Positions 1-48,232 of a stretch of 64,000 nucleotides of DNA are shown here, one piece after another (the stretch's first letter is position 1; every line of letters begins with the position of its first letter). Origin of the DNA: Candidatus Harrisonbacteria bacterium (GTDB lineage: Bacteria > Patescibacteriota > Minisyncoccia > UBA6257 > UBA11618); assembly GCA_023244855.1 (NCBI GenBank), contig JAHFLO010000001.1, forward strand, positions 5,895 through 69,894, given 5' to 3'. The notes under the pieces are model-generated. The model did no database searches and was not told where the DNA came from. It saw nothing but the letters and a program-made list of their open reading frames with translations. The position numbers were made by a program, and so were the translations under genes.

Positions 1-1436
1 TTTATGGCGTCCGCATAGATTATCTGCCCCTTGGCATACGTGCCGATGCCCGTACCGCCGCGCGGCGTATCTAAAATGCCGCTCGTAATTTTCCCTGCGT
101 CCAAGTTCGGGATATCGGCTGCTGTAAGGGTTGGCAAACGAGCTGCATTAATAGTGCCGCTTGTAATTTTTCCGGCATCCAAATTAGGAATATCAGCAGC
201 CACGAGATTGCGGAACGTTGGTGCGCCTGCGGCCGTACCCGAAGAGGGACCTGCTAAAATATCGTTCGGCTGCTGCGTCTTCCATGCGAAGCTTAGCGTA
301 CCCGTATCCGTTACGGGTGACCCGGCAACGAGAAATTCTGCAGAGGGCGCCGAAAGACCCACGGAACTCACCGTCCCACCGCCGCCAGAGGACTTCGAAG
401 TCCAAGAAAGCGTGCCATCAGTATCCGTCGTGAGCACGAGCCCGTCGGCTGCGGGGGCAGCTACAGGGAAAGTGAAGGTGTTTGCGCCAAATTTTATCTG
501 CCGATTCGGAATGGAGACGAGCTTATCAAAAGAGGTATTTTCCAAAAAAGTCACATCAGAGGAAGTAAGACTCATAAGCGACTTAAGGTTGCTCGTAGGA
601 TTATTTAAGTCGGAAGTAAAGCCGACAAGTAATTTCGGGCGCGTAAACCGTATTAAGTCGTTCGTACCGTCACCAGTGGTACTAATACTGCCCCCTCTCG
701 TCCGGAAATCGTTCGCGTAAATAACACCCGCAACTTCGAGCTCGCTTTGGGGGTTTGTAATGCCGATACCAACCCTACCGTTATTTAAAATAGAAACGGA
801 TTCCGATCCGTCACCAGAATCAAGAATACTTAAACGATAATTCGATGCGTCCGTCGCCGTGGTACGCACCTTAAAACCCTTATTAGCTGCCGCCGAACCG
901 TTCCAGCCAGAGCCCTGAAGTAGAAGGCCTGCAGAATGGAAGCCCTGCGTGCCGGCAGTTGCCGTCCCTAATGGCTCACCCGTAAGGGTTCCCGCAGACG
1001 TATCGGATACGAAATTACCCACGCGGACGGCGTTCATAGCGTACGGCGCAGGGGCGAAAGCGACACGCGGCGAGGCTTCAGCGTCATTTTCAATCGTCAC
1101 GCCCAAGTAGAGCGGCGTCGTAAACGTAAGCGTACTTGGAAACGCCTCGCAACTACCCATCTGCACGGAGAAATAACCGTTCGAATCCGGCGTTACTTTG
1201 GCGCATGCGCCGGAAGACTGACTGTAGGATTCAGTCCATAGGGCCGTGCCGCCCGTTGCCGCGGAATAGAGGGAGAAGGATACTTTCGTCGCCGTGGTGA
1301 TTGCCGCGCCCGCCGTCGTCCGTAAGCGTGACTGGTAGTTTATAACGGCAGGGACGGCCGCTTGTGCGGAAAAAACCGCGCATAAAAGCGCCGCCGTTAT
1401 GGCCGCCCCGAATCCGTATGAGCGATTTCTTTTCAT
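1..1436 (-). CDS. Large secreted surface protein, N-terminal part (partial, continues beyond window start); tail-fibre-like repeats
   Basis: Absent from the ORF track because it is open at the window edge. The reverse strand has ATG at 1436 (MKRNRSYGFGAAITAALLCAVFSAQA, signal-peptide-like) and stays open to nt 1. It carries two AADIPNLDAGKITSG repeats and a GGTGIG motif. The + ORF 31..720 is its antisense shadow. Confidence 0.6.
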   Translation of the reverse strand, partial: MKRNRSYGFGAAITAALLCAVFSAQAAVPAVINYQSRLRTTAGAAITTATKVSFSLYSAATGGTALWTESYSQSSGACAKVTPDSNGYFSVQMGSCEAFPSTLTFTTPLYLGVTIENDAEASPRVAFAPAPYAMNAVRVGNFVSDTSAGTLTGEPLGTATAGTQGFHSAGLLLQGSGWNGSAAANKGFKVRTTATDASNYRLSILDSGDGSESVSILNNGRVGIGITNPQSELEVAGVIYANDFRTRGGSISTTGDGTNDLIRFTRPKLLVGFTSDLNNPTSNLKSLMSLTSSDVTFLENTSFDKLVSIPNRQIKFGANTFTFPVAAPAADGLVLTTDTDGTLSWTSKSSGGGGTVSSVGLSAPSAEFLVAGSPVTDTGTLSFAWKTQQPNDILAGPSSGTAAGAPTFRNLVAADIPNLDAGKITSGTINAARLPTLTAADIPNLDAGKITSGILDTPRGGTGIGTYAKGQIIYADAI

Positions 1437-5126: not shown

Positions 5127-5222
5127 GATTTCTTCTCCCTCTGCATGTGAAGAGCTGCAAATGTCGACTGACCTCGGACTCAATCCGAGATACCGGACAT
5201 TTTTATACTATCAAGTCCACCC

Positions 5223-5262
5223 AAAAGAAAACAAGTGGATAAATATCCACTTGTTTTCTTTT
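5223..5262 (-). terminator. Hairpin terminator after tRNA-Pro
   Basis: aaaagaaaacaagtggat-aaat-atccacttgttttctttt is a perfect stem with a T-run. The stem contains two near-DnaA-box words (GTGGATAA/TTATCCAC). Confidence 0.7.
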
Positions 5263-5280
5263 GTTTTATTTTCCGGCTAT

Positions 5281-5354
5281 TGGTCGGGGTGCCGGGAATC
5301 GAACCCGGTCTTTACGCACCCGAAGCGCACGTACTGCCGGTATACTACACCCCG
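5281..5354 (-). tRNA. tRNA-Pro (anticodon CGG), CCA encoded
   Basis: Acceptor CGGGGTG/CACCCCG (C1:G72, as in bacterial tRNA-Pro), anticodon loop TTCGGGT, T arm CCGGG-TTCGATT-CCCGG, ends ACCA. Confidence 0.85.
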
Positions 5355-5398: not shown

Positions 5399-6874
5399 TT
5401 ATTTCACGTGGAACTTTTCCTTTATCTCCTCTTCCGCTCCCCGCTCGAATTCCTCTTTCTTGTCTTTCGCTTTCGCCGCGAGGGATTTTAGTTCCGCGTC
5501 CGGCAAGGCGTTCAATTCTTTTATGCGCGCAGTGAGCGCATCTTCTGCATTCTTTAGCGGGTCGTCCAAAACTTCTTCCAAGAGCACGGCTAAAATCCAG
5601 CCCACCTTCGGGCTCGGCTCTAATCCCCCGAGGCGCATGACGTCCGTGCCGTCGAGTGCCAGCATGCGCGTGTCTATCGCGTCCTGCGCAACCTTCTCGA
5701 TCATGAACATCAAGTGGCGCAACTTGTACGGCACGGCCTTCGGCACGCCACTACCAATACGGTCCGCCTCGCGGACTTTCAGCAAGTCAGCAATATGCTC
5801 CGGCCCTACTTTGCGTACGAATCTTCGCACGCCGGATTCCGTCACTTCGCCCACGTTATAGTAAAAGAGATGCCAGCGTACTAAGTGCGCTATTTTCTCA
5901 ACGGTTTTTTTAGGGAAATGCAGGCGGTCGAGCATAATGCACGCCATTTTTGCACCCACGACTTCGTGGTTATAAAACGTGCTGTCATGCCCGTCCCCGC
6001 GCTTCGTCGCGGGCTTGCCTACGTCGTGCAATAAACTGCCGAGTCGCACCTCAAACGAATACCCCTGCTTTGCCGTATATTCCAGTGCGCGTACGTTATG
6101 CTCGTACACGCTATATATATGATGCTTGTTTTGCCCGCAGTCCACGCCATCTAGAAGCTCGGGTAATACATGGCGCATAAGCCCCGTGTCCGTAAGCATA
6201 CGGATGCCAAGCCCTGCGCCGTCGCTTTCGATGATTTTAACGAGCTCGTCACGCACGCGTTCTTTAGCCACGGCTTCGAGCAAACCTGCGTGGCGCTTCA
6301 CGGCTTCCATAGTTTTTTCTTCAACGGCAAACCCCAGCTGCGCGGCAAAGCGCACCGCGCGCATAAGGCGCAAGGCATCTTCCGTAAAGCGCGCGTCGGG
6401 CTCGCCTACCGCCCTGATTATTTTCTTTTTTAAATCAGCTAATCCCCCGAAGGGGTCTATAACAGATGCATGATTCAAGATGCATGATTCATGAATACGA
6501 AACGCAAGCGCGTTCACGGTAAAGTCGCGACGCGCTAAATCCTCTTCGATGGTTTTAACAAACGAAACGTTATCAGGGTGACGCATGTCGCGGTACGCGC
6601 CTTCGGTGCGGTACGTCGTTACTTCTACTACCGCATAGAACGGATTTTCTGATCCGGTTTTAATCCCCACCGTACCGAACGCGTTTTCGTAAACGCTATC
6701 CGGAAACAATTTCTGCACATCCTCCGGCAACGCATTGGTCGCTATGTCCCAATCCTTCGGCTCCCTGCCGAGCAAAAAATCCCGCACGCACCCGCCTACC
6801 AAGTGCGCCTCGAAACCGGCTCCGTTTAAAACCGTACCAATCGCACCAATTTCTTCGGGGACCATAAGTGCCAT
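5399..6874 (-). CDS. cca: CCA-adding tRNA nucleotidyltransferase with HD domain
   Basis: 491 aa. HLVGGCVRDFLLGREPKDWDIAT nucleotidyltransferase motif and a C-terminal HD (LLHDVGKP). Confidence 0.9.
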   Translation of the reverse strand: MALMVPEEIGAIGTVLNGAGFEAHLVGGCVRDFLLGREPKDWDIATNALPEDVQKLFPDSVYENAFGTVGIKTGSENPFYAVVEVTTYRTEGAYRDMRHPDNVSFVKTIEEDLARRDFTVNALAFRIHESCILNHASVIDPFGGLADLKKKIIRAVGEPDARFTEDALRLMRAVRFAAQLGFAVEEKTMEAVKRHAGLLEAVAKERVRDELVKIIESDGAGLGIRMLTDTGLMRHVLPELLDGVDCGQNKHHIYSVYEHNVRALEYTAKQGYSFEVRLGSLLHDVGKPATKRGDGHDSTFYNHEVVGAKMACIMLDRLHFPKKTVEKIAHLVRWHLFYYNVGEVTESGVRRFVRKVGPEHIADLLKVREADRIGSGVPKAVPYKLRHLMFMIEKVAQDAIDTRMLALDGTDVMRLGGLEPSPKVGWILAVLLEEVLDDPLKNAEDALTARIKELNALPDAELKSLAAKAKDKKEEFERGAEEEIKEKFHVK

Positions 6875-6955: not shown

Positions 6956-7027
6956 GTCCTCGTGGTGAAATGGATATCACTACTGCCTTCGAAGCAGTCG
7001 TTGAAGGTTCGAGTCCTTCCGAGGGCA
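6956..7027 (+). tRNA. tRNA-Arg (anticodon UCG)
   Basis: Acceptor GTCCTCG/CGAGGGC, anticodon arm ACTGC-CTTCGAA-GCAGT, T arm GAAGG-TTCGAGT-CCTTC, discriminator A. 72 nt. Confidence 0.85.
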
Positions 7028-7069
7028 CAAAATAAAACCCCCTATAATAGGGGGTTTTATTTTGTGCCC
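7023..7069. terminator. Long palindromic terminator overlapping the tRNA-Arg 3' end
   Basis: gggcacaaaataaaaccccctat-a-atagggggttttattttgtgccc, with 23-bp arms. Confidence 0.7.
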
Positions 7070-7070
7070 A

Positions 7071-7175
7071 AGGACTCGAACCTATGGCGACGTTCGAATT
7101 CATCCAGAGCTTATGCGAGGTTAGAATTCGATAAGGAGTGCCAGAGGGAAGCGCAGCGACGAGGAAGGTCCTTAT
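7071..7175. repeat. Structured intergenic element, copy A (inverted pseudo-copy of the tRNA-Arg 3' half plus the two-hairpin module)
   Basis: aaggactcgaacct (7070-7083) is the reverse complement of the tRNA T arm (7005-7018). Hairpin 1: cgaattc[ATCCAGAGCTTATGCGAGGTTA]gaattcg (7095-7130). Hairpin 2: ataagga[..CAGAGGGAAGCGCAGCGACGAGGAAGG]tccttat (7131-7175). Confidence 0.7.
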
Positions 7176-7310
7176 ATCAGCAGCTTATATTATTTGACAT
7201 GATTGCTAATTCCGTGCCATAATAGGCACGCGTTGTTACACGCACGGAAACCTTGAAAACCGAATAGTTTAGAACCTGTTTTCCCTAACCCCTTTGGAGG
7301 AGACTCTGCG

Positions 7311-11845: not shown

Positions 11846-11917
11846 GCTCTCATCGTCTAACGGCTAGGACGTGCCCCTTTCACGGGCAAAATCGGAGTTC
11901 GATTCTCCGTGGGAGCA
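11846..11917 (+). tRNA. tRNA-Glu (anticodon UUC)
   Basis: Acceptor GCTCTCA/TGGGAGC, anticodon arm TGCCC-CTTTCAC-GGGCA, T arm CGGAG-TTCGATT-CTCCG. Upstream TTGCCG-17-CATACT promoter. Confidence 0.85.
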
Positions 11918-11956
11918 CAAAAACAATAACCCCAAACAGGGGTTATTGTTTTTGTG
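11916..11956. terminator. Palindromic terminator after tRNA-Glu
   Basis: cacaaaaacaataacccc-aaaca-ggggttattgtttttgtg. Confidence 0.75.
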
Positions 11957-12052
11957 CGACGAAGGAGGTTTTGCGATTTATCCCGAGCTTAAGCGAGGTT
12001 AAAATCGCAAAATTTCGTCAGAGGGAAACGAAGTGACGATGACGATCATTTT
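11957..12052. repeat. Structured intergenic element, copy B (two-hairpin module)
   Basis: Hairpin 1: gcgattt[ATCCCGAGCTTAAGCGAGGTTA]aaatcgc (11973-12008). Hairpin 2: aaaat.tcgtc[AGAGGGAAACGAAGTGACGAT]gacga.catttt (12009-12052). Confidence 0.7.
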
Positions 12053-12166
12053 TATCAACGATCGATGCCATGCATCGAGCCAGACACCAAGACTTTACTT
12101 TTTAATAAAAAGACGTATAATATCCCGCAGACCTTACCCATACAACCCTTTTGCACGAGGTATACC

Positions 12167-17119: not shown

Positions 17120-17318
17120 GATTAAAAAACTATAATGCCACGGAATAAATAATAACGGAAGATGAATCGTCCTCGTAGAAAGAACTTCCTTATTGCTTCG
17201 CTTCCCTCGGAAGAAATTTTGCAATTTCAACCTCGTAAACTCGGGATGAATTGCAAAACCTCCTCCGGACGTGATTCAAAAACTCTAACCTCGCTATGCT
17301 CGGGAGATTTTTTTCATC

Positions 17319-17363
17319 AAAAAAATACGGCGAGTCGCCCCAAACACTATGGGACGACTCGCC
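17319..17363 (-). terminator. Rho-independent terminator
   Basis: Reverse strand: ggcgagtcgtccc-atagtgttt-ggggcgactcgcc followed by a T-run. Confidence 0.75.
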
Positions 17364-21060: not shown

Positions 21061-21093
21061 GACGCGACAGCCACTTGGTCGTCGCGTCTTTTT
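21061..21093 (+). terminator. Rho-independent terminator
   Basis: gacgcgac-agccacttg-gtcgtcgcgtc followed by ttttt. Confidence 0.75.
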
Positions 21094-21098
21094 GATTT

Positions 21099-21189
21099 AA
21101 AAGTTATCCCGATCCGCCAGTGCGCGGAGAGGTTAAAACTTTTCAATCATGTCCGGAGGGAAGCGAAGCGACGAGGACGATTCATTGAA
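21099..21189. repeat. Structured intergenic element, copy C (two-hairpin module, not next to a tRNA)
   Basis: Hairpin 1: aaaagtt[ATCCCGAtccgccagtGCGcgGAGAGGTTAa]aactttt (21099-21143). Hairpin 2: ttcaatca[tgtcCGGAGGGAAGCGAAGCGACGAGGACGAt]tcattgaa (21142-21189). Confidence 0.65.
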
Positions 21190-34512: not shown

Positions 34513-34587
34513 GGGCGCCTAGCTCAGTGGTAGAGCGCTTCTTTTACACAGAAGATGTCGGGGGTTCGATTCCCTTGGCGCCCACCA
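34513..34587 (+). tRNA. tRNA-Val (anticodon UAC), CCA encoded
   Basis: Acceptor GGGCGCC/GGCGCCC, anticodon arm CTTCT-TTTACAC-AGAAG, T arm GGGGG-TTCGATT-CCCTT, ends ACCA. Confidence 0.85.
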
Positions 34588-34625
34588 ATAATAAAAGCCC
34601 TTATTTGGGGCTTTTATTATTGGTG
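34583..34625. terminator. Palindromic terminator overlapping the tRNA-Val 3' end
   Basis: caccaataataaaagccc-ttatttg-gggcttttattattggtg. Confidence 0.75.
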
Positions 34626-34743
34626 ATTGCACTAGGGGGAATCGAACCCGGAGGGGCGAGAGTTTTTAATGAGCTCGCGAAGCGAGCGATTATAAAAACC
34701 GATGTCTCGACCGCAGGAAGAGGCGATTCCCTTGGCGCCCACC
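34626..34743. repeat. Structured intergenic element, copy F (inverted pseudo T arm, core, direct copy of the tRNA-Val 3' end)
   Basis: gggggaatcgaacccgg (34635-51) is inverted relative to the tRNA T arm. The core GGCGAGaGTTTTT..hairpin..AAAAAC..GTCTCGACCG is shared with copy G. gattcccttggcgcccacc (34725-43) is identical to 34568-86. Confidence 0.7.
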
Positions 34744-35859: not shown

Positions 35860-36310
35860 CCTGATAAACAAATTGTTTACCGGCAAACACTTTATATTTT
35901 TTGTAAAACACTTTTGTTTTACAAAGTGTTAAACATCGCTGTTAAACAAAATTTTGTTTAACACCCAAAAAAGATAATAGCAAAGCGCCCGCCCGCTTGT
36001 TTTACAAACATGGCATTGACTTACTTTGTTTAACAGTGTGAAACATATCGTTTTGTAAAACAATCCGATACGCTCATGGATATTAGATTTTATTAAAAAA
36101 TGCATAATTGAGTGTTTAGCGTTTTTCACGAAAAAACGATTTTATTTTGTAAATCAACCAACACTCGACCGCATTTGTAAAACAATTTGTTTGCTGACAA
36201 GCATTGATTTACATAATTTAGAGTGTTGGTTGATTTACAAATCAAATCACTTGTTGGTCAACCAACAGTGATTTGCTGATGTAATTGAGTGTTGGTTGAT
36301 TTACAATCAA
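35860..36310. repeat. A+T-rich block dense in iterons and palindromes
   Basis: 20-mer GAGTGTTGGTTGATTTACAA at 36221-40 and 36287-306, inverted at 36147-66. 22-nt perfect palindrome at 35941-62. IR TTGTAAAACA-cttt-TGTTTTACAA at 35901-24. More than 10 copies of TGTTT(T/A)ACA-type words. Confidence 0.8.
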
Positions 36311-43811: not shown

Positions 43812-43942
43812 GACCTAACTCCTTGGTTTTTTGAGAACATCCGCACACCGCGGATACTTGTATTACAGTACTATATTAGCGGCTATTTGTCAAGTATATT
43901 TGATTTGTCGAGTAAAAAAATATAGTATAATCCATATAGAAA

Positions 43943-44013
43943 GCAGGTATAGTACAATGGTAGTACGTTTGGTTGCCAATCAAAATACACGGGTTCGATT
44001 CCCGTTACCTGCT
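43943..44013 (+). tRNA. tRNA-Gly (anticodon GCC)
   Basis: Acceptor GCAGGTA/TACCTGC, anticodon loop TTGCCAA, discriminator U, T arm ACGGG-TTCGATT-CCCGT. Confidence 0.85.
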
Positions 44014-44022
44014 CAGTCCAAC

Positions 44023-44051
44023 AAAAAGACTCCCTATAAGGGAGTCTTTTT
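44023..44051. terminator. Bidirectional terminator shared by the convergent tRNA-Gly and tRNA-Arg
   Basis: aaaaagactccc-tataa-gggagtcttttt. Confidence 0.8.
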
Positions 44052-44066
44052 GTTTGCTTTAGACAG

Positions 44067-48027: not shown

Positions 48028-48031
48028 CAGA

Positions 48032-48071
48032 ACAAACAAAAATACCCCCTATGTGGGGTATTTTTGTTTGT
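48032..48071. terminator. Palindromic terminator after tRNA-Ser
   Basis: acaaacaaaaatacccc-ctatgt-ggggtatttttgtttgt. Confidence 0.75.
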
Positions 48072-48232
48072 CTTGTGAAAGAGTGGAATTCGAACCGAAG
48101 GCGAGCGTTTTTCCCCAAGCGCTAAAGCGCTTGGTCGAAAAACGCGAAGTCTCGACCGAGCTTGCGAGGGAGAGGCGAATCCCACTCTTCCATTGCGTGC
48201 GTAATCGAAAAACGGCAGGCGAATCCCACTCC
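48072..48232. repeat. Structured intergenic element, copy G (homologous to F), with two extra direct copies of the tRNA-Ser T-loop/acceptor segment
   Basis: gagtggaattcgaacc (48081-96) is inverted relative to the tRNA. Core GGCGAGcGTTTTT..ccaagcgc-taaa-gcgcttgg..AAAAACGCG..GTCTCGACCGAGCTTGCGAGG. gaatcccactc recurs at 48177 and 48221 (tRNA copy at 48011). Confidence 0.7.

Follow-up and report, generated by a model that had tools for sequence, protein, structure and literature searches.

A dimeric hairpin repeat in Candidatus Harrisonbacteria and its relatives as a candidate strand-specific single-stranded DNA site

A stretch of 64,000 nt from Candidatus Harrisonbacteria bacterium (contig JAHFLO010000001.1 of assembly GCA_023244855.1, positions 5,895 to 69,894 of the forward strand; hereafter the window) carries a repeated module made of two consecutive hairpins. 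Its helices show compensatory changes with no RNA-type G.U signature, copies are gained, lost and relocated between relatives while a shared copy is highly conserved, and its cores serve elsewhere as terminal inverted repeats of small GIY-YIG nuclease genes. Ssn nucleases are single-domain GIY-YIG proteins of roughly 94 aa that bind hairpin repeats (NTS and other Ssn-related motifs, SRM) exclusively as single-stranded DNA (ssDNA) and recognise just one of the strands (Chenal et al. 2025, Nat Commun 16:2388; PMC11893778). By analogy with these enzymes we favour, with modest confidence, a reading of the module as a pair of ssDNA hairpins that would form an Ssn-like, strand-specific site for a small GIY-YIG nuclease.

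Structure and covariation of the module

Three copies of the module (A to C, at 7095–7175, 11973–12052 and 21099–21189) had been described in an earlier note made from the sequence alone, and all were confirmed (Table 1). The core of hairpin 2, GAGGGAARCGMAGYGACGA, has three exact matches in the window versus 0.11 expected, and the frame of hairpin 1, ATCCNGA..GAGGTTA, has three versus 0.03, in both cases far above chance. The count of three was nevertheless too low, since a match with three mismatches on the minus strand led to a fourth, nested locus that had been overlooked (copy D, 17161–17319). Outer hairpin 1 of copy D occupies 17278–17319, and its outer hairpin 2 (GAATCACGTCCGGAGG ... 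ACGAGGACGATTC) is split into two halves, 17262–17277 and 17161–17177, the 11-nt apical mini-hairpin being swapped for a complete inner two-hairpin module (17173–17261). A covariance model built from 28 homologues and run over the window without filters matched copies A to C, the copy D module and the copy D outer hairpin 1, and found nothing further with E<0.1. Copy density is 4–5 in 64 kb, every one intergenic. A weak match of the model at 36049–36135 (13.5 bits, E=0.27) resembles hairpin 1 in outline and may be a decayed module or a chance similarity.

Both hairpins follow one plan: helix - CC - (0–1 nt) - GA - apical hairpin - GA - GG - helix. The module of bacteria of the candidate phyla radiation (CPR), about 90 nt long, consists of two such units head to tail, the first with a free apical hairpin and the second with an invariant apex. 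The apical hairpin of hairpin 1 is small and variable (GC-uuau-GC, GU-agg-AC, AC-gca-GU, AU-cgc-AU, UCCGC-cagu-GCGcGGA, UUCGCC-agc-GGCGAA). The apex of hairpin 2 reads GGGAA-[RCGNAGY]-GAC, where N is any base, and forms a triloop mini-hairpin whose R/Y closing pair covaries (GC 24, AU 9, one mismatch). We take its GCGNAGC form to be the classic, very stable 'GNA' triloop mini-hairpin of DNA. What the earlier note had called conserved loops are therefore not loops, as they contain the CC/GG pair, tandem G.A/A.G positions and a small, covarying apical hairpin. The stems that it had drawn for hairpin 1 of copies A, B and C, and the hairpin 2 stems ataagga/tccttat and tcgtca/tgacga, were correct, but the copy C hairpin 2 stem ttcaatca/tcattgaa pairs only in part (UUCAAU/AUUGAA). 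In copy B, an AAAA is common to hairpin 2 and to the 3' strand of hairpin 1.

Covariation was assessed on 35 full modules, with compensatory changes among them, that the covariance model recovered from about 200 kb of Saccharibacteria, Parcubacteria, Harrisonbacteria and related CPR contigs, a search that the earlier note had proposed. In this alignment, which was fitted to the model, 89.7% of cells were paired versus 77.0% in shuffles (none of 500 as high) and 99 cells showed double changes versus 27 in shuffles; many copies fall in few subfamilies, so independent events are fewer than these cell counts. Controls with a slid register gave 30–48% of cells paired. Compensatory changes occurred in four of the five modelled helices, a result that supports the selection on structure proposed earlier. 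They affected six of the seven basal pairs and both apical pairs of hairpin 1, the mini-hairpin pair of hairpin 2 and the closing pair of its inner stem (CG 18, GC 9, AU 6), and the outer helix of hairpin 2 was the weakest across homologues. Hairpin 1 folds well under RNA or DNA parameters and on either strand (z about -3), whereas hairpin 2 is missed by nearest-neighbour energies (RNA folding z about 0); the structure of hairpin 2 is accordingly drawn from the covariation of its 4-bp inner stem and apical pair, not from folding energy. The 5' flank (TGATT or CGACG) can pair with the segment between the hairpins, a pairing that covaries in loci L106 and L111 and would be an alternative to the weak outer stem of hairpin 2; a 5' TGAT is constant in most copies.

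Table 1. Coordinates of the module copies and of associated features (window positions unless a locus is named)
Feature	Position	Strand	Description
Copy A hairpin 1	7095–7130	+	cgaattc/gaattcg around AU-CC-A-GA-[GC uuau GC]-GA-GG-UUA; covariance model 61.7 bits; DNA fold z=-2.8
Copy A hairpin 2	7131–7175	+	ataagga/tccttat; core CC-A-GA-GGGAA-[GCGCAGC]-GAC-GA-GG; covariance model
Copy A 5' context	7026–7094	+	Palindromic terminator beginning within tRNA-Arg, then inverted copy of tRNA 3' end and GACGTT flank
Copy B hairpin 1	11969–12012	+	ttttgcgattt/aaatcgcaaaa; whole module 87.1 bits (covariance model); L038 orthologue 83/85 identical
Copy B hairpin 2	12009–12053	+	(aaaat)tcgtca/tgacga(tcatttt) around GA-GGGAA-[ACGAAGT]-GAC-GA
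Copy C hairpin 1	21093–21143	+	Conserved 5' TGATT flank; aaaagtt/aactttt; enlarged apical hairpin TCCGCcagtGCGcGGA; 90.7 bits
Copy C hairpin 2	21144–21189	+	AAUCAU-GUCC-G-GA-GGGAA-[GCGAAGC]-GAC-GA-GGAC-GAUUCA
Copy D, nested	17161–17319	-	Covariance model 61.1 and 21.6 bits
Inverted tRNA-end copies	2440–2480, 7066–7090, 34640–34665, 48085–48110; L069 3603–3630; L115 2310–2345

Base-pairing signature

Base pairs in the well-supported helices of the module comprised 575 Watson-Crick, 8 G.U and 13 A.C pairs. By contrast, 520 Watson-Crick, 29 G.U and one A.C were counted in the acceptor and anticodon stems of the 50 tRNAs that these contigs encode. The difference in G.U:A.C (8:13 versus 29:1; Fisher p=4.8e-6) points to a pairing constraint unlike that of RNAs in these organisms, and the signature is as would be expected of a DNA hairpin. 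Despite this DNA-like pairing the module is strand-specific, owing to unpaired conserved purines that are non-palindromic and present on one strand only (GA..GA, GGGAA..GAC and the GAUUCA tail).

The search of Rfam proposed in the earlier note returned no family over the modules, the ssDNA motifs that Rfam holds included. In the window, only tRNAs reached gathering thresholds and the modules were unmatched even at E<=10; in 18 related loci, tRNAs and a single unrelated Acido-Lenti-1 match were obtained. The latter, at 75–119 (minus strand) of the Prolixibacteraceae locus L058, is a bona fide Acido-Lenti-1 RNA (RF01687, 42.8 bits) that has no relation to the repeat. The arrangement CC-N-GA ... 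GA-GG resembles kink-turn (K-turn) and other tandem-GA RNA motifs in setting tandem G.A/A.G beside C-G pairs, but the bulge measures 0–1 nt and not 3, no K-turn-containing Rfam family was matched and the covariation signature is not of the RNA type. Hammerhead, twister, sarcin-ricin loop, canonical K-turn and integron attC were also compared by eye and set aside, core nucleotides or boxes being missing with no Rfam support. A minus-strand gene for a tRNA, with or without an intron, or for a tRNA-like RNA was discarded too: ARAGORN found none there, and the T-arm-like stretch by copy A is an inverted copy of the 3' end of the upstream tRNA. The earlier note had further pointed out that the reverse strand is complementary to Shine-Dalgarno sequences. 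This reading is unsupported, as the complementarity simply mirrors GAGG motifs rich in purines, and modules run with the sense strand of the genes and tRNAs beside them.

A multi-phylum repeat family associated with GIY-YIG nuclease genes

When genome contigs were scanned with the exact core of hairpin 2, 110 matches in 95 loci were obtained, and a metagenome scan requiring both hairpins gave 25 loci, of which about 17 held true modules. The exact core spans Bacteroidota, Chlorobiota, Neomarinimicrobiota and Patescibacteria, with many copies per genome that sometimes form tandem arrays. In Mucilaginibacter, Pedobacter, Prolixibacteraceae, Rikenellaceae, Chlorobiota and Neomarinimicrobiota the units have the form tGTC-ATTCC-GA-GGGAAGCGNAGCGAC-GA-GGAAT-Ct, and apical inserts of dozens of other kinds, almost all of them set between GA..GA, occupy the same frame. 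In L058 two tandem units contain the two apical sequences of copy C in the same order. These data contradict the part of the earlier view that set the module apart from repeats: it belongs to a large multi-phylum family whose members, as described below, are gained and lost between close relatives. Viral contigs and a plasmid collection gave no match, and a phage or plasmid origin was rejected on that ground. A literature search with the unit sequence as a string returned only irrelevant primer matches.

As repeats of this kind occur together with small GIY-YIG genes, the fetched loci were searched by tblastn with a GIY-YIG sequence, which matched three of them, each time directly beside units. 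In L049 (Patescibacteria), a 105-aa GIY-YIG gene lies between 52-nt inverted repeats with the hairpin 2 core of the window (TGTCATTCC-GA-GGGAAGCGTAGCGAC-GA-GGAATCT), and in L019 and L093 an Ssn-like gene sits within arrays of units. Inverted repeats of the type TGTCAT../..ATGACA also surround an Ssn-like gene in the independent loci L122, L125, L128, L130 and L131, where they are GA-bracketed except in L130, which has the classic CGTC type with an uninterrupted stem; L129, a further locus with an Ssn-like gene, is masked by Ns. The repeat core of L131, CCGAGCGGAGCGAGG, is identical to the core of hairpin 1 in L108 and L116, and the L125 unit CATCCCGAGC...CGAGGGATC parallels ATCCCGAGC...GCGAGG of the window. 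The nuclease family counts 2310 members at E<=1e-10, and the three proteins checked were all single-domain, with Pfam GIY-YIG only. In a Neomarinimicrobiota locus (L068, 3694–3828), a weak GIY-YIG-like open reading frame (ORF) fragment (E=9e-4) directly upstream of a unit may be a decayed nuclease gene.

Gain, loss and conservation between relatives

Identity between the window and a Saccharibacteria metagenome-assembled genome is about 84%, and comparison with this relative revealed differences at two of three comparable sites, one copy being absent and one relocated. Copy D is missing at the orthologous tsaD site in L038, where the terminator is followed by 23 nt and the ATG. At the copy A site, relative L009 has 14 nt between tRNA-Arg and a conserved TTGACA-N18-CATAAT promoter, versus about 150 nt in the window, which are made up of the palindromic terminator, the inverted copy of the tRNA 3' end and copy A. 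About 1 kb downstream, after the terminator of the next gene, L009 carries a homologous module of 87% identity that retains a remnant of this flank, a place where the window has none. Copy B has 83 of 85 positions identical to its L038 orthologue (97.6%), versus 29/40 (72%) for the terminator, 96/113 for the downstream intergenic sequence and 286/459 (62%) for the coding sequence around it. Combined, these results indicate that single copies are dispensable and movable, and that a retained copy is strongly constrained. Comparison of filled and empty sites for target-site duplications showed CCGTAAC and TTCCGT repeats near some junctions, not at both ends.

At a further locus, L107 (2585–2760, minus strand, compared with window 43900–44015), 30 nt from the 5' half of tRNA-Gly are directly duplicated and abut a module. 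Compared with the window, the tRNA-Gly segment lies in inverted orientation and the stretch between conserved blocks differs, forming a variable region.

Genomic context and orientation

The neighbours of the module in the window are housekeeping genes (CCA-adding enzyme, GNAT, RecG, DoxX, TsaD). All four copies lie between co-directional units and in the orientation of those units, downstream of a terminator and upstream of a promoter-like site, so that the placement described earlier for three copies holds for copy D as well; the promoter of copy A is shown by its conservation in a relative without the module, and those of the other copies were read by eye. Because the promoter 3' of copy A is conserved in that relative, a promoter or -35 role of hairpin 2 was rejected. 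Among the 35 modules, 15 have a terminator-like hairpin on the same strand within 80 nt upstream, versus 3–5 downstream, and about 16 have a tRNA within 200 nt on the same strand, versus two on the opposite strand. GC skew is single-signed across the window and copy D is opposite in strand to copies A to C, which indicates that copy D is aligned with gene direction, not with the replication strand. The skew is negative in almost every 4-kb bin, though most genes are on the plus strand.

Other arrangements were observed around modules. In L098 (753–790, minus strand) an ORF begins 8 nt past the GAGGA of hairpin 2, leaving no room for a promoter; a tRNA-Pro-module-ORF transcript would result, for which the module may supply the Shine-Dalgarno sequence. 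In L071 (599–1181) two inverted modules flank a gene of 131 aa with a hydrophobic, pilin-like N-terminus, a layout like the repeat-gene-repeat arrangement around Neisseria genes. Downstream of copies A and D, at 7209–7226 and 17127–17144 (minus strand), the motif ATTCCGTGSCATWATAG covers the -10 element, and a similar version of it is present in relatives without the modules.

The tRNA genes of the window have no encoded CCA, and a gene for a CCA-adding enzyme is located at 5399–6874. Nearly every tRNA is followed by a long, near-perfect, A/T-rich palindromic terminator (2440–2520, 5200–5285, 7026–7072, 11914–11958, 34585–34632, 44015–44066, 48029–48075), whose stem starts in the last bases of the tRNA (..GCAC AAAA..) and which looks bidirectional. 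Past the terminator, the T-arm and 3' end of the same tRNA often recur in inverted and slightly diverged form (GGAATCGAACC-like; Table 1), meaning that the palindrome reaches about 25 nt into the tRNA. Repeats of the form GTCATTCC(C)... have a 5' half resembling the tRNA T-loop and stem (TTCGATTCC; compare, for example, window 7003–7015) and a 3' half resembling its complement (GGAATCGAA). From such sequence likeness one may speculate that the repeat superfamily originated in tRNA-end palindromes.

Alternative explanations

A structured RNA element, co-transcribed with the upstream gene or tRNA, would have tandem-G.A (K-turn-like) hairpins that bind a protein or protect or process ends, for example as a tRNA trailer or leader, as a 3'-end stabiliser of the kind proposed for repetitive extragenic palindromes (REPs) or as a back-up terminator. 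Such an RNA is unlikely, although it would account for several observations: orientation matches adjacent tRNAs (16:2) and about 70% of neighbouring ORFs, and is not set by the replication strand; the module directly adjoins tRNA-Pro and an ORF in L098, and in L103 it is placed between tRNA-Arg and tRNA-Leu, which leaves no space for a promoter; same-strand terminators stand just upstream of 15 of the 35 copies; and the sequence of copy B is strongly conserved. It is countered by the lack of a G.U excess over A.C that sets the helices apart from tRNAs of the same contigs, and by the position of the window copies after terminators and ahead of promoters. The module is dispensable at two of three comparable sites in a close relative, no Rfam family and no 3-nt K-turn bulge were found, folding energy gives hairpin 2 no support, and the same units act as DNA terminal repeats around nuclease genes. 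An even smaller chance, close to nil, is given to a short coding sequence. Its appeal is that the four variable core positions coincide with third-codon positions of GGG AAR CGN AGY GAC GAN (G-K-R-S-D-E/D), and that an ATG in some copies yields MSGGKRSDEDDS... The peptide GKRSDE was rejected, however, on the grounds that stops occur within 10–25 codons upstream in most copies, that ACG takes the place of ATG in many, that the frame downstream of the core is not conserved and that R and Y covary as a base pair.

Two further explanations remain at the DNA level. Hairpin- or cruciform-forming DNA of passive or host character, with no dedicated nuclease, could be a ligand of a general protein such as gyrase or a nucleoid protein, or act as a recombination hot spot or an insulator between transcription units. 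Consistent with this improbable option, the module is always intergenic between co-directional units and occurs at rearrangement break-points (the tRNA-Gly duplicate and inversion of L107, and a variable region bounded by modules), and bacterial interspersed mosaic elements and REPs offer precedents (PMC3733652); the strict one-strand conservation of the purine motifs points instead to a sequence- and strand-specific ligand, for which the GIY-YIG gene association supplies a candidate. Mobilization by an HUH/Y1 transposase (RAYT or IS200/IS605 TnpA) of a classical REP or palindrome-associated miniature element, the two same-strand hairpins being its left and right ends, appears highly improbable. 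The occurrence of two hairpins on one strand, the absence of a clear target-site duplication and the gain and loss of copies between relatives would suit it, as would the 5' TGAT flank, constant in most copies, that recalls TTGAT, the target of ISDra2. Against it, a tblastn search with IS200 TnpA over 785 kb of loci and the window found no Y1 transposase, the sole weak match being an aldo-keto reductase; a GTAG tag is missing, stems are wholly different between copies of one genome, and the units are found around GIY-YIG genes.

The reading as an Ssn-like nuclease site has its own difficulties. A hidden Markov model of 120 homologues, run against six-frame ORFs, found no Ssn-like gene either in the window or in about 200 kb of two-hairpin CPR loci, and no two-hairpin module was found beside the Ssn-like genes examined; two long contigs added to this comparison proved not to be of CPR origin. 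The base of hairpin 1, a variable outer stem with AU/UUA, and that of hairpin 2, ATCAYGTCC..GGACGATTCA, both differ from the GTCAT-YCC..GGR-ATC of nuclease-flanking units. The published, degenerate SRM pattern HGTCWYN(0-2)YYVSBRHN(0-5)WNVSBRGN(0-2)RNCYNB fits neither of the hairpins and has no match on either strand of the window. Orientation tracks neighbouring genes and tRNAs (16 on the same strand, two on the opposite) and not the replication strand, and modules that abut a tRNA or ORF with no room for a promoter must be transcribed there. The conservation of copy B exceeds what a purely selfish element would need. All of these points weigh against an Ssn-like site.

Proposed mode of action

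Of the two options left by the earlier note, structured RNA is probably wrong and is not favoured, whereas an ssDNA hairpin ligand is the better fit given the lack of a G.U excess, the occurrence of the cores as terminal inverted repeats of GIY-YIG genes and the restriction of characterised Ssn nucleases to ssDNA. Each hairpin is a single unit from a widespread family of extragenic hairpin repeats, with the purine-rich strand as the meaningful one. As ssDNA, exposed by replication, transformation or extrusion, the module would provide a binding or cleavage site for an Ssn-type single-domain GIY-YIG nuclease encoded elsewhere in the genome. Like REP, NTS and SRM, copies might spread or vanish as miniature non-autonomous elements, survive in harmless places (after terminators, beside tRNA genes, ahead of promoters) and, where retained, be kept intact by selection. 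A cognate nuclease in this genome, its binding or cutting of both hairpins and a biological consequence, which in Neisseria is recombination control of incoming ssDNA, are predicted. As no Ssn-like gene was found in the window or the two-hairpin CPR loci, no two-hairpin module was found beside the Ssn-like genes examined and the bases of the hairpins differ, membership of the Ssn system is not claimed here, only a similar way of working.

A variant of the proposal, which we hold quite unlikely, would make the CPR module a host-retained, tRNA-linked ssDNA control element with a partner of its own, either a divergent Ssn or an unrelated protein. Placed where transcription units meet, it would be a mark at which incoming or replicating DNA is cut strand-specifically in these naturally competent, nucleotide-scavenging bacteria, and its corollary would be that the GTCATTCC...GGAATC superfamily arose from palindromic terminators copying the tRNA T-arm (TTCGATTCC / GGAATCGAA).

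If the proposed Ssn-like role is right, the system of Ssn nucleases and hairpin repeats would reach the CPR and Bacteroidota with a GA-bracketed, GNA-capped class of motifs that is dimeric in CPR. The published SRM pattern misses this class, so current censuses would undercount the Ssn system. The repeats would also furnish candidate recognition sequences for site-specific ssDNA nucleases. Moreover, clean compensatory covariation in intergenic hairpins could then stem from DNA-level elements, and comparison of G.U with A.C would be a cheap discriminator.

Comparison with known hairpin repeats and nucleases

Known CGTC-tagged REPs of Bacteroidetes and Chlorobi have a CGTC or TGTC tag and a stem starting with AT, and no dedicated transposase is known for them (Di Nocera, De Gregorio, Rocco 2013, BMC Genomics 14:522; PMC3733652). 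They lie downstream of genes and have uninterrupted stems of 8–9 bp, loops of 4–5 nt and a short CCA-like tail (PMC3733652). The Bacteroidota and Chlorobiota relatives described here, TGTC-ATTCC...GGAAT-C, share with them the tag, the AT-starting stem, the C-rich tail, a location downstream of genes and the lack of a known dedicated transposase, but the stem of the present family is of 4–5 bp and is followed by GA/GA and an apical domain of 7–40 nt. When the features of CGTC REPs were looked for, the Bacteroidota relatives showed only the tag and the AT-stem, and the window hairpins showed no unpaired tag, any CGTC being inside the stem of hairpin 2, and apical domains of 8–30 nt. REP/REPIN-RAYT systems and the palindrome-associated elements (PATEs) of IS200/IS605 resemble the module as extragenic ssDNA hairpins with strand-specific recognition, gain and loss between strains and a proposed domesticated nuclease. 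They differ in their GTAG and Y1/HUH gene, neither of which was found for the module, in their inverted instead of direct dimers, and in the enzyme family.

A close parallel is with the Ssn nucleases and SRM, which include NTS / dRS3 of Neisseria (PMC11893778). Ssn genes are typically flanked by their own repeats, the NTS-ssnA-NTS arrangement being like an insertion sequence, and cleavage occurs a few nucleotides upstream of the hairpin, with removal, replacement or extension of the loop tolerated; in Neisseria, Ssn limits recombination of incoming ssDNA (PMC11893778). CPR, Bacteroidota, GA-interrupted stems and two-unit modules are not discussed by Chenal et al. (PMC11893778). The SRM pattern recovers the NTS control and misses the GA-bracketed units of other phyla. 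The match to the end of a known mobile element or to an Rfam family that the earlier note had named as telling against its proposal thus took the form of a resemblance to SRM and REP, with no Rfam family and no SRM pattern match. Unlike SRM, the module has a stem broken by tandem G.A, a long structured apex, a 5' tag ATCA/TGAT and not CGTC, frequent linkage to tRNAs and, in the window, no nuclease gene; in CPR it fuses two different units head to tail, where SRM are single or in inverted pairs. Like SRM, it is a short directional hairpin repeat, intergenic and present in many copies per genome, with one meaningful strand and a replaceable apex; its pairing signature is DNA-like, and its cores are found elsewhere as inverted terminal repeats of single-domain GIY-YIG genes of roughly 100 aa. 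What is new relative to known hairpin repeats is the bracketing by GA, the GNA mini-hairpin cap and the head-to-tail dimer, which is specific to CPR and often linked to tRNAs.

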